A stretch of DNA of 63,951 nt, the filler included, from an uncultured Methanosarcinales archaeon (GTDB lineage: Archaea; Nanobdellota; Nanobdellia; Woesearchaeales; CALCXY01), in assembly GCA_964385185.1 (NCBI GenBank). It is 4 parts of 4 records of this genome, joined end to end, with 100 filler letters (N's around TTAATTAATTAA, not from the genome) between each part and the next. Parts side by side here need not be neighbours in the genome. Positions count along the whole stretch, not along the records: positions 21,261 to 41,078 come from CAYLOA010000022.1; 3 more parts are not named here. One strand, 5' to 3'. The position numbers and the translations under genes were made by a program. Positions within the stretch are counted from its first letter, which is position 1. Each line of letters begins with the position of its first letter. Shown here piece by piece: positions 1,294 to 30,763 of this stretch. Under the pieces are notes generated by a model, which saw nothing but the letters and a program-made list of their open reading frames with translations, had not been told where the DNA came from and made no database searches.

Positions 1294-1722
1294 CTAAACA
1301 ACCTTTATCTCATCTATGTCAAAATATCTTTTTACAATAGATTCAGTATTACGAAGTGTTTCAGCGGCTCTGCCGATTAAGTATCCTCTTGTTTGGTGAT
1401 TTTCTGCTGTTAGTAATACTATTTTCTTTCCATCTTCTTCTTTCTCTTCAACGTTAGCAAGTTTATTAGGATAGACCACATGTTGGATGAATTTTTCAAT
1501 ATCAGGAGAAAATTCGATAATCTTTATAGTTTTTTTAGCCATATGATTTAATTTCTTCACATTAGCTCCTTGTTTACCAATAGCCTTAGCTGCTTGGTTT
1601 TCATCCACAATATAGGTAATGCTTTTATCTCCAGGATAACAATCCTTAACTCTAGCACCTGTCATAGACTCAAACAGACTTATATGTTTCAGAACCTCAG
1701 TATCTAGCTTTATCTTACTCAT
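1294..1722 (-). CDS. nusA: Archaeal NusA (KH domains)
   Basis: AIGKQGANVK and LIGRAA KH motifs; follows L30e. Confidence 0.95.
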   Translation of the reverse strand: MSKIKLDTEVLKHISLFESMTGARVKDCYPGDKSITYIVDENQAAKAIGKQGANVKKLNHMAKKTIKIIEFSPDIEKFIQHVVYPNKLANVEEKEEDGKKIVLLTAENHQTRGYLIGRAAETLRNTESIVKRYFDIDEIKVV

Positions 1723-17039: not shown

Positions 17040-17043
17040 TGGA

Positions 17044-17169
17044 TCCCTCCCCCCAGATTCGAACCGGGAACCTTTCGGTCTCAGCTGACTTGGTGTCATT
17101 CAGTGCTTTATACACAGTCTCCAAGCGATTATCTACAGCCGAACGCTCTAGCCATTGAGCTAGGGAGGG
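17044..17169 (-). tRNA. tRNA-Tyr(GTA) with 53-nt anticodon-loop intron (about 17080-17132)
   Basis: CCCTCCC/GGGAGGG acceptor with archaeal C1-G72, TTCGG-CTGTAG[intron]A-CCGAA, TTCGAAT T-loop; 73 nt after splicing. Confidence 0.93.
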
Positions 17170-17259
17170 AATAGTAATTAGTTTATTGAATTGCTTTATA
17201 AAAGTTCTTGTTAAGAAGTTGTGCATTGGGCAAAGAATATGGTAAATAGTATTGAGCAG

Positions 17260-28863: not shown

Positions 28864-29692
28864 AATACATATAGCTCAAAAGCTTATATATTAATCTTGC
28901 TGATAATACGTTACAATGTTCTTGTCCTTCTCTTGGACACAATTCTACAACATCAAAGCCAATTATTTTCTTTTTTGCACTTACTTTCTTTAAAAATTTC
29001 AATAATTGCCAATATCCCATCCCTCCAGGCTCTGGAGTCCCCGTAGCAGGCATAATGGAAGGATCTAAGGCATCTAAGTCAATTGTAACATACACTTCTT
29101 CATCAAGTCTATCAACAGCCTTATCCATCCAAGAATCATCATCCATTATATCTTTGGCAAAGAACACATTATCATCTACCATATCCTTTCTTTCACCTTG
29201 AGAACAACTTCGAATACCTACTTGGACAAAAGGGCAGATGTCTTTAACTCTTGCCATAACAGAAGCATGTGAGAACTTTTCTCCTTTATATTCATCCAAT
29301 AAATCTGCATGTGCATCAATTTGTAACTTACACATTTTTGGAAATTTTTCTTTAAACGCTAAAACAGAACCAATACTGATGGAGTGTTCCCCACCCAATA
29401 AAACTACTTTTTTATCTTGAGAAAGTAGTTCAGAAACCCTTTTCTGAACGTTTTGCACCATCTCTGTTGCATCTTTTCCAGTAATGGGTTCATCTGTAAA
29501 GATTCCTTCTTTTACCACCTCAGAATCTGTTTCTATGTCATATGTTTCTAAATGTAAACTGGCATCGATAAGTGCCTCTGGCCCTTTATCTGCACCTTTC
29601 ATCCATGAGCTAGTACCATCAAAAACTACCGGAAGTATTACTATCTTAGCTTTATCTACATTATCAGCACTTCCACCTACGTATTGTTCCAT
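28856..29692 (-). CDS. speB: Agmatinase (ureohydrolase family)
   Basis: GGEHS, DAHAD, DLDALDP, TGTPEPGG; start at MEQYV. Confidence 0.92.
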   Translation of the reverse strand: MEQYVGGSADNVDKAKIVILPVVFDGTSSWMKGADKGPEALIDASLHLETYDIETDSEVVKEGIFTDEPITGKDATEMVQNVQKRVSELLSQDKKVVLLGGEHSISIGSVLAFKEKFPKMCKLQIDAHADLLDEYKGEKFSHASVMARVKDICPFVQVGIRSCSQGERKDMVDDNVFFAKDIMDDDSWMDKAVDRLDEEVYVTIDLDALDPSIMPATGTPEPGGMGYWQLLKFLKKVSAKKKIIGFDVVELCPREGQEHCNVLSARLIYKLLSYMYYG

Positions 29693-29750
29693 AGAAATAT
29701 AGACTCTGATATCTATTATAAAAGTATCGTTTAGGAAAAGTGTTAAGAAT

Positions 29751-29868
29751 AAAAAACGCCAACGCCCGGAACAACTACACAAGTTAGTTGACCCCTACTT
29801 CGGATTGGAGGATTTCACTTCGTTCAACCCTCTAATGCTCATGAAAAGAAAAAACGCCAACGCCCGGA
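29751..29868. repeat. 20-bp direct repeat of tRNA-Ser 3' end enclosing a 78-bp hairpin insert
   Basis: AAAAAACGCCAACGCCCGGA at 29751-29770 and 29849-29868. Confidence 0.88.
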
Positions 29869-29978
29869 TTTGAACCGGGACATCCGTGAGGAAACAACCG
29901 CTCCTCGCTTCACTCGGACCATTTCAGCCGAGCTGAAACTTTCCAGGGTTGCGCAGTACCAGGTTGTGCCACGTTGGC
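29855..29978 (-). tRNA. tRNA-Ser(GGA) with 40-nt anticodon-loop intron (about 29901-29940)
   Basis: GCCAACG/CGTTGGC acceptor, CAACC-CTGGAA[..]-GGTTG, long variable arm, G73; 84 nt after splicing. Confidence 0.9.
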
Positions 29979-30146
29979 ATAGCTAACGTGGCGACCACAA
30001 ACTCTGTTTGGGTGTATGCCACGTTGGCGAATGGAATGAGACTACGTGGCGACCGTGGATTTTGATCCACGTGTATGCCACGTTGGCGAATGGAATGAGA
30101 CTACGTGGCGACCGTGGATTTTGATCCACGTGTATGCCACGTTGGC
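29979..30146 (-). repeat. Three tandem hairpin units (50, 59, 59 bp), each starting with nt 1-12 of tRNA-Ser
   Basis: TGCCACGTTGGC ends at 29978, 30028, 30087, 30146; units 30029-30087 and 30088-30146 identical. Confidence 0.92.
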
Positions 30147-30208
30147 GTAAAGTTGGAACAAAACTAAGTAATAAAAGAAATAGAAATTGGTTTATAAAGT
30201 TTACCAAT

Positions 30209-30763
30209 TCATCTAGCGTGTAATACTTCAGGTTTTAATAACCCAAACTCAGGATCATAGCCAATGCTAAAACCTTGTGTTACCAACACACCTAATGATT
30301 GGTATATTCTAATACTTTTTCGTCCCCATTCTGGTAAACAAGACGAAGATGCATATTTTTCTGGATTGTTCGCATATCTTTTTGAGTCATCCACAGAAAG
30401 GAGAGCCTCTTTTGCCCCCTGCTGAGTCATGGTTACTTCCATATCTACAGAATCTACAGTTAACATTAAAGGAGTAAGATTCTCCGCTGATATTTTCGTT
30501 TGCACTGCAGTCTCAAAATCATCTCCCTCATGAATTCTATGAGCATATTGTCGCGCACTTGCGCCTAACATGTTCTCTCTTGTTCTTGTCTCTTGCCCTA
30601 CGTATGGTTTACTTGCTACCTCTTCAAGAAACAAGTATACACCTTGAGCAACATCTCTATCCCATAATTCACCTGCAGGAAGAATTAAATCATTACCCCT
30701 TTCAGAACTTGCACAATTTCCTTTCTGTGTAATTACTCTTATTAATCCATCCATATAAATCAC
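30209..30763 (-). CDS. Hypothetical protein
   Basis: 184-aa ORF, no motif recognised. Confidence 0.7.
   Translation of the reverse strand: MIYMDGLIRVITQKGNCASSERGNDLILPAGELWDRDVAQGVYLFLEEVASKPYVGQETRTRENMLGASARQYAHRIHEGDDFETAVQTKISAENLTPLMLTVDSVDMEVTMTQQGAKEALLSVDDSKRYANNPEKYASSSCLPEWGRKSIRIYQSLGVLVTQGFSIGYDPEFGLLKPEVLHAR

Follow-up and report, generated by a model that had tools for sequence, protein, structure and literature searches.

Short non-coding hairpins that spread within genomes are known from the palindromic elements of Rickettsia, the repetitive extragenic palindromes (REP) and their paired form (REPIN) that go with RAYT transposases, Correia elements and similar miniature transposable elements with inverted repeats (MITEs); their transcription is tolerated and the genes that they enter can survive. 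In such repeats the element owns both arms of the hairpin, which do not vary from site to site, and the target is duplicated over a short length or not at all. Another point of comparison is the attC site of integrons, whose R boxes follow the consensus RYYYAAC/GTTRRRY. At the 5' part of tRNA genes, the integrase of pTN3 from Thermococcus nautili is described as recombining with tRNA-Leu at nucleotides (nt) 2-44, the minimal site, where the two sequences are identical over 41 bp (PMC5495485). Here we describe three hairpin-forming DNA modules which precede an intron-bearing tRNA-Ser(GGA) gene on the minus strand of a 63,951-nt stretch of DNA (filler included; hereafter the window) from a tiny marine archaeon (assembly GCA_964385185.1). 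Judged by comparison of sequences, these modules belong to a conserved family that is widespread across the Woesearchaeota order, and we think it probable that they represent a gene-sparing insertion or duplication module which acts at the DNA level and undergoes tandem amplification, and whose transcript forms a pre-tRNA leader that RNase P cuts off.

The modules, termed units A1, A2 and B, are listed with the other features of the locus in Table 1. The original prediction, made from the sequence of the window, described an array of hairpin units that each open with nt 1-12 of tRNA-Ser, and sequence reading, repeat counts and folding all bear this out. Unit A opens with the copy of tRNA nt 1-12 (GCCAACGTGGCA) and TACAC, which lead into the inner hairpin GTGGAT-CAAA-ATCCAC; after it come GGTC, the target copied in inverted orientation (GCCACGTAGTC) and an 11-nt linker (TCATTCCATTC). 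Unit B has the same flanks around a different inner hairpin (CAAAC-AGA-GTTTG), an inverted target copy (GCCACGTTAGC) which is complementary at 10 of 11 positions, and a 3-nt linker, TAT. The 12-mer GCCAACGTGGCA occurs four times in the window against 0.03 expected and GGTCGCCACGT three times against 0.06 expected; Tandem Repeats Finder reports a period of 59 with 2.3 copies and 100% matches at 30012-30147. The predicted folds are stable (−22.9 kcal/mol, z −6.0, for unit A; −21.1 kcal/mol, z −4.4, for unit B). As had been claimed, the outer arms pair and the inner hairpin differs between A and B yet remains paired in both; the outer stem is in fact longer than first described, spanning up to 11 positions, of which 9 are paired in A and 10 in B.

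The nearest TATA box was also correctly placed upstream of the array: TTTATAAA is part of the only consensus-like promoter in this region of the window, the 44 nt between it and A1 are AT-rich, and reading of the linkers of the window array found no TATA-like sequence. We attribute promoter function to this element from the usual geometry of archaeal promoters. Because the array lies downstream of it, the units would be transcribed as a pre-tRNA leader of about 170-190 nt with three stable hairpins, to be cut off by RNase P. An RNase P RNA was found in four of four relatives tested, and the hairpin leader should therefore be removable. The proposal that the units are co-transcribed small RNAs released by tRNA processing is plausible, being compatible with the position of the promoter and with the RNase P RNA of the relatives. 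When leader and tRNA were folded together the three hairpins persisted and, in the minimum-energy structure, GCCAACG of the first unit paired with the 3' acceptor strand of the tRNA, which suggests that a duplicated acceptor strand is better kept in a hairpin. Pairing of the outer arms may hide the extra copies of the acceptor 5' strand, which could otherwise compete for the 3' strand.

The tRNA-Ser(GGA) gene itself was missed by default ARAGORN and by a whole-window Rfam scan at gathering thresholds. It is nonetheless genuine: a sensitive scan scored it at 39.3 bits with the Rfam tRNA model (cut-off 29), the anticodon loop containing a 41-nt insertion, and ARAGORN with introns allowed reported it as tRNA-Ser gga i(40,40).

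The identity of A1 and A2 raised the possibility of an assembly duplication, a concern already voiced in the original prediction. The window stretch is present in 20 DNA metagenome runs from 17 studies, and we checked copy number in Logan contigs and unitigs of four runs from four studies. In all four runs a unitig (30059-30100) bridges the A-to-A junction at about the depth of the flanks, and the depth of the A-specific unitig (30071-30147) is about two-fold that of the flanks (21.6 against 10.8, 13.5 against 7.1, 13.4 against 7.0 and 37.8 against 19.7), so an assembly duplication is excluded. Depth and junctions fit exactly two A units, and the copy number is real. The same three units are found in an independent 9.4-kb metagenome contig (L142), and another metagenome contig (L160) breaks inside an A unit. 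The 100% identity between A1 and A2 fits the amplification in tandem of a single unit.

Relatives of these units were sought in 28 genomes of a single family, in 150 sampled genomes of the Woesearchaeota order and in metagenomes. The first, a single 66-nt unit before tRNA-Ser(GGA) in a Woesearchaeota metagenome-assembled genome (locus L027, genome G001), came from a scan of a genome collection, whose pattern was too degenerate: it gave at least 120 loci, mostly chance matches, with six tRNA-Ser genes among the matches listed. Further units, before tRNA-Ser(TGA) or tRNA-Ser(GGA) genes, came to light in genomes G296 and G313 and in two metagenome contigs through pattern searches and a metagenome scan; of the 40 loci of that scan, 35 were repeats unrelated to the units. 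Six units that were folded gave z values from −3.1 to −6.0. In an alignment of seven units from six sources, 86% of cells were paired and 11 of 20 pairs had changed on both sides; none of 500 shuffles reached this pairing, and slid registers came nowhere near it. Among 41 distinct units the values were 87.5% and 15 of 20, in an alignment that is biased towards structure because it was fitted to the model.

Covariance-model searches then recovered homologous units upstream of other tRNA genes. Model R1, built from the seven units, had 17 matches in 9 of the 28 family genomes and 42 matches in 22 of the 150 order genomes. Model R2, built from 43 units, had 79 matches in 36 of the 150, with 1-9 matches per genome; this figure includes G122 and G133, each with one weak partial match at a locus that was not inspected, and without them it is 34 of 148. 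Both models were built mostly from units at tRNA-Ser genes. Within the 64-kb window, R2 matched only the three units of the array. Full-text literature searches, with subscription journals and supplements outside their scope, returned no description of such modules. They are apparently undescribed; their kind is known, as small selfish hairpin repeats and duplications of tRNA ends, and the mechanism has a fair chance of being new.

Table 1 Coordinates of the features at the tRNA-Ser(GGA) locus of the window (R2, covariance model; BRE, transcription factor B recognition element).
Feature	Position	Strand	Remarks
Promoter-like element AAAC-TTTATAAA (BRE-like + TATA box)	30202..30191	-	3' end 44 nt upstream of A1
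TATA-like box TTTATAAA	30198..30191	-	sequence reading
Second AT-rich box TTTTATTA, weaker	30176..30169	-	sequence reading
Unit A1	30146..30088	-	59 nt; R2 62.9 bits, E 3.8e-17
Unit A2	30087..30029	-	59 nt; 100% identical to A1
Unit B	30028..29979	-	50 nt; R2 61.8 bits
tRNA-Ser(GGA) gene	29978..29855	-	Rfam tRNA and ARAGORN with introns allowed
tRNA-Ser intron, ~40 nt, in anticodon loop	roughly 29940..29900	-	
3' unit behind tRNA-Ser	29848..29751	-	T-run trailer, short inverted copy of T-loop region (GGGTTGAAC), spacer, second tRNA 3' end TCCGGGCGTTGGCG + T-run (29770..29751)

Reading of 10, 29 and 35 loci in turn gave a common plan: a direct copy of the first 11-14 nt of the gene, ending in GCA (X); TAC(N)C; a hairpin; GGTCGC; the inverted X (X'); a linker, commonly ending in CGTTACACTCAT; and the gene. 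The inner hairpin is perfect, with 5-9 bp of variable sequence and tips that often read ..AATC-AAA-GATT... Where the outer and inner stems join, the irregularities do not change: the internal loop is 2x1 (AU/C), there are two pairs, which read AC/GU or, in L158, CC/GG, and one nucleotide is bulged. A downstream copy of the first 11 nt of the unit lies within 140 nt in 67 of the 69 units measured; it is exact in 62 of these 67, with an exact run of 12-14 nt in 57, and begins 2-58 nt (median 14) after the end of the model match. In every case read, a gene on the same strand begins with this copy, and by our reading of these measurements every junction is GCA, followed by CA or TA in the gene.

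Nearly all matches lie directly upstream of tRNA-Ser, tRNA-Thr or tRNA-Arg genes with GCA(C/T)A at nt 10-14. The 29 loci of the R1 stage comprise 27 tRNA genes (23 Ser, 4 other), one contig end and one non-tRNA site, and the 35 of the R2 stage comprise 31 tRNA genes (23 Ser, 4 Thr, 4 Arg), one contig end and three non-tRNA sites; tRNA-Thr(CGT) of G307 is also a target. Homologous units precede non-orthologous isoacceptor genes (GGA, TGA, CGA and GCT). In contrast, for 14 other tRNA genes of G001 and G296 the 200 nt upstream never contain a copy of the gene's first 10 nt.

The arms follow the local gene. Matched X/X' pairs are GCCAACGTGGC/GCCACGTTAGC in the window, GCCGCGGTGGC/GCCCCCGCGAC at L228, GCCAGCGTCGC/GCGACGCTGTC at L234 and GCCTCTGTAGC/GCTCCACAGGC at a tRNA-Thr gene (L256); for tRNAs that start with GCCGCGG, GCCAGCGTCGC, GTCGCGG or GCCTCTGTAGC, X is the same as the gene and X' its complement, and the core and linker are common across genomes and targets. 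X' is often a hybrid (seen in L252, L263, L275, L240 and L121), in which the proximal part fits local nt 7-11, whereas ..CTTGGCA or ..CTTGTCA persists in the distal part regardless of the local nt 1-6; by pair counts, pairs 6-11 are paired in 92% and pairs 1-5 in 73%. Unit number also varies. Identical tandem copies, which fit unequal exchange or slippage once one repeat exists, were found as two 130-nt units (G304), two 68-nt units (L250) and three units (G313:C4), besides A1 and A2 of the window.

Two sites lie in protein-coding genes. At L245, in genome G301, a unit occupies the 5' end of uvrA (NCBIfam UvrA equivalog, 667.7 bits), lying between two copies of the gene start, each about 46 nt long. 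The inner hairpin of the unit, GTGAATC-AAA-GATTCAC, is nearly that of the tRNA-Ser units of the same genome, its junction (GAGAGCA|CAATCT) resembles tRNA-Ser nt 10-18, and its X' is a hybrid in which GCTCTCT matches the new target and GCGC is donor-like. In the second case, at L314 in genome G008, an MCM gene (Pfam MCM_N, 35.1 bits) carries at its start a related hairpin insert, with a 16-nt exact repeat on the flanks of the insert. At L245 we also noted that the duplicated uvrA start opens a 32-codon upstream open reading frame (ORF; 1477-1575, plus strand) which runs through the hairpin module. The TGA of this ORF and the ATG of uvrA overlap (ATGA), an arrangement in which translation of the two could be coupled.

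The hybrid arms recall template switching at quasi-palindromes, with which the units share the direct-inverted-direct layout and an arm that appears to have been corrected against the other, as in the hybrid X' of uvrA. In such a scheme each locus could have arisen by an independent local rearrangement, namely a chance template switch at the quasi-palindromic tRNA 5' end followed by unequal crossing-over, and neither a shared element nor mobility would be involved. In favour of this, the 5' end of the tRNA is nearly self-complementary and the order X, X', X is the product of two template switches, repeat lengths vary from 12 to about 46 nt, which is more like slippage than like a transposase, and mirror-image units occur at tRNA 3' ends. 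Nevertheless we regard this explanation as improbable, because template switching accounts for the rebuilding of the arms and not for the shared core, hairpin tips and linker. Non-target sequence (TAC(N)C, GGTCGC and the linker ending) is common to different genes and genomes, as are hairpin tips such as (T/A)GAATC-AAA-GATTC(A/T) and AAAAATC-AAA-GATTTTT; the junction always follows GCA; and the hairpin in uvrA matches a tRNA-Ser unit of its own genome.

In most of the relatives that we read, the first unit is preceded, at a distance of about 26-38 nt, by a BRE/TATA-like motif. Its consensus, (A)AANCTTT(T/A)(T/A)AAA, occurs both upstream of first units and upstream of unit-less tRNA genes, and the box in the window matches it. 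Since the distance from the motif to the first unit equals that from the motif to +1 at unit-less genes, the native promoter now appears to drive the unit first. Some long linkers in relatives carry a TATA-like box of their own (L228, L292 and L311). In G296 several non-Ser tRNA genes (L186, L188 and L190) have a conserved leader in common, which is about 75 nt long, contains two hairpins and lies between a TATATAAATAAT box and +1; this is a leader family different from that of the tRNA-Ser modules.

A location inside the transcribed leader, deduced from the position of the promoter, also invites the explanation that the hairpins are a functional leader RNA maintained by selection, with the duplication of the tRNA 5' end as part of the design. 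Such an RNA might mask or time the pairing of the acceptor 5' strand, guide RNase P, bind a protein at the AU/C loop and bulge, or yield stable small RNAs. Structure is strongly conserved, with pairs changed on both sides, and core sequence and stem irregularities are conserved across the order; X' is moreover complementary to the real tRNA 5' end, so that alternative pairing is possible. We judge this explanation unlikely, for several reasons. Orthologous tRNA genes can lack the unit: G313 (L198) has one and G312 (L197), with the same tRNA-Ser(TGA) gene and the same intron, does not, and no 5' unit was found at L131, L197, L204 or L207. Any match at all is confined to the 36 of 150 genomes given above, the number of units varies (1, 2 or 3, including identical tandem copies) and some copies are decaying. 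Finally, the module, with arms rebuilt to the target, sits at the starts of uvrA and the MCM gene, where a tRNA-leader function makes no sense.

Taken together, these comparisons favour repeated 5'-targeted insertions, one of the two alternatives raised in the original prediction, on account of the same junction in many genes, the protein-gene sites and the presence or absence of units at equivalent genes; the array in the window itself probably does not represent three separate insertions. According to the gene-sparing insertion that we favour, the module would enter particular genes of DPANN archaea of the Woesearchaeota type within their first 12-14 bases, or be copied there, and after the linker the intact gene would start again with X, so that the gene survives because the start of the target is duplicated. 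The likely order of events is insertion followed by tandem amplification: in the window, type A would then have been duplicated in tandem, with type B beside the gene.

How the arms are made is a more tentative matter. It is possible, though we would not call it probable, that the units are a hitherto undescribed class of gene-sparing mobile module of DPANN archaea, in which a core hairpin of about 25-30 nt enters after ..GCA and fold-back or template-switch synthesis writes the first bases of the target into both the direct and the inverted arm. Copying of X into X' in this manner would explain the hybrid arms; the gene would be rebuilt and the duplicate masked in a hairpin, and terminal repeats encoded by the element would be unnecessary. 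Fold-back synthesis might also link the 5' family to mirror-image units at tRNA 3' ends and to other odd tRNA gene structures (introns, split genes and nested copies).

Several observations weigh against insertion of a mobile module. A Y1 (HUH) transposase, the hallmark of palindrome-associated IS200/IS605 derivatives (PATE) and of REP/RAYT systems, is not a regular feature of carrier genomes: PF01797 (IS200-type), the only enzyme family profiled, was matched in 10 of 22 R1-positive genomes and 45 of 128 others, showing no association, and G296, G039 and G083 have units and no PF01797 match. Near the tRNA gene of the window there is no integrase or transposase ORF, those at 26-34 kb being arginase-family, FtsZ-like and of no recognised kind. 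Copy number per genome is low, unlike that of proliferating MITEs, and clear protein-gene sites are limited to the two described, plus a few unclear non-tRNA sites; sites other than tRNA-Ser are under-sampled because of the composition of the covariance models. The units are not all young, since some are decaying (hairpin mismatches at L237, two mismatches in X at L242). Conserved stem irregularities and the exactness of X in 62 of 67 units could equally fit selection on a functional RNA. The analysis, which covered DNA data, yielded no excision product and no pair of occupied and empty sites within one population.

With palindromic repeats and MITEs the units have in common that they are short, non-coding and hairpin-forming and that they sit inside genes without destroying them. 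They differ in that the outer stem is a copy of the target, copies are few and almost all lie at nt 12-14 of tRNA genes; in place of constant terminal inverted repeats and a fixed short duplication, we found arms that vary with the target and duplications of 12-14, 16 and about 46 nt. Likeness to integron attC and CTX-phage attP sites is structural, both being imperfect 50-70-nt hairpins in which bulges are conserved and the distal stem-loop varies, and which form tandem arrays beside a fixed site; here, in contrast to attC arrays, no cassettes lie between the units. When boxes were compared by reading with the attC consensus (integron integrases were not sought), GCCAACG and CGTTAGC came close without fitting, and the boxes of other units, such as CGTAGTC and CCGCGAC, did not fit.

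The 3' end of the tRNA gene in the window is duplicated as well. The last 20 nt of tRNA-Ser with its T-run are repeated 98 nt downstream (29868..29849 and 29770..29751), the 20-mer occurring twice against 0.00 expected; the fold of the 3' unit of the window is no more stable than shuffles (z −0.2). In relatives, 3' units comprise an inverted copy of the T-loop region, a hairpin-rich core and a second tRNA 3' end with its trailer, and thus mirror the 5' units. Their core, ACACGC-AAAAATC..GATTTTT-GGTGCC, is common to a tRNA-Gly, a tRNA-Ser and another tRNA gene (L207, L201 and L204). A rough ARAGORN-based count, unreliable since boundaries were off by one and the 5' copies of the window itself went undetected, also placed 3' copies at tRNA-Gly and tRNA-Glu genes.

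Other unusual tRNA-Ser genes were met during this work. At L229 (G245:C23, about 1410-1800) and in G321:C25, a complete tRNA-Ser(TGA) gene with acceptor GCCGACG/CGTCGGC lies between two partial copies, an upstream piece with nt 1-57 (acceptor GCCAGCG) and a downstream 3' part with a T-loop insert which ends in CGCTGGCG; the two flanking pieces correspond to one another and look like an older gene that was split around a newer one. Upstream of tRNA-Ser(CGA) at L122 (G002, 1340-1500), about 120 nt resemble a truncated copy of the gene, with the 5' part, the CGA anticodon arm and the variable arm but no T arm, which by its sequence is a different, longer kind of 5' partial copy. The tRNA-Ser genes of G001 and G296 (L121 and L126) have two or three introns, one of them in the T-loop, and ARAGORN fails on them or mis-calls them; it also labelled intron-bearing tRNA-Ser(TGA) genes as tRNA-Ala.

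Duplications at both ends of a tRNA gene bring to mind integration scars of the pTN3 or SSV type, left when a plasmid or virus recombines with the 5' part of the tRNA gene through a tyrosine integrase, the gene is rebuilt, and the element is later almost wholly deleted. There is a documented case in pTN3, which integrates into the 5' part of an archaeal tRNA gene so that the rebuilt gene lies away from its promoter (PMC5495485). Its partial tRNA-gene repeats (attL/attR) resemble the units in that a tRNA 5' piece is duplicated, the gene is rebuilt and the displaced copy lies upstream by the old promoter; an intact gene is likewise reconstituted here, a complete tRNA-Ser following the units in the window and in relatives. 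The older split gene copy of G245 (L229), which brackets a complete gene with matching acceptor strands, would also suit such an event. Integration scars are nevertheless very unlikely in our estimation. The repeats are of 12-14 nt against the 41 bp of identity given for pTN3 (PMC5495485), with only 38-47 nt between them in the window (about 40 nt between copies) and neither an integrase gene nor a fragment of one near the tRNA gene. In contrast to pTN3, the inverted target copy forms a hairpin with the displaced copy and protein genes are hit, and the arms, unlike an attP site, change with unrelated targets (tRNA-Thr, tRNA-Arg, uvrA). A scan of viral contigs found no such unit, its two loci both being unrelated 43-nt tandem repeats.

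Known RNA elements and simpler derivations of the unit sequence were also considered. In an Rfam 15 scan of 29600-30300 with E values up to 10, only the tRNA model passed, four other matches falling far below their cut-offs. Inspection of the unit/tRNA junctions revealed no bulge-helix-bulge motif of the archaeal intron type, in which a 4-bp helix separates two 3-nt bulges on opposite strands, and the folds show instead the 2x1 internal loop with a 1-nt bulge on the same strand. No kink-turn, C/D box, H/ACA or ribozyme motif was seen by eye or matched in Rfam. An origin of the inner stem of unit B (CAAAC/GTTTG) from the anticodon stem (CAACC/GGTTG) was dropped, the likeness being absent in other units, and the notion that the GGT of GGTCGC was copied in inverted form from nt 15-17 (ACC) of the tRNA was rejected, as units before genes with AATC still read GGT.

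Elsewhere in the window, the 184-aa ORF just upstream of the array (30209-30763, minus strand) has no Pfam match at E values up to 0.01. ARAGORN with introns allowed reports a second intron-bearing gene, tRNA-Tyr(GTA), at 17040-17170 on the minus strand, which default ARAGORN and the Rfam gathering scan missed.

If gene-sparing insertion is the true explanation, the ultra-small genomes of these archaea carry tiny insertions which survive by duplicating the start of the gene that they hit and by folding the spare copy away. Insertion would account for recurrent oddities of DPANN tRNA genes, such as 5' and 3' fragments, long structured leaders and tandem hairpins, which confuse tRNA finders and annotation, and would provide a concrete model of how tRNA genes gain sequence without being lost. 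The covariance model, together with the target rule G10 C11 A12 Y13 A14, makes the element searchable, and the mechanistic question that it raises is which enzyme or repair pathway writes an inverted arm derived from the target. Should the hairpins instead be functional leader RNAs, they would constitute a new kind of pre-tRNA control element.

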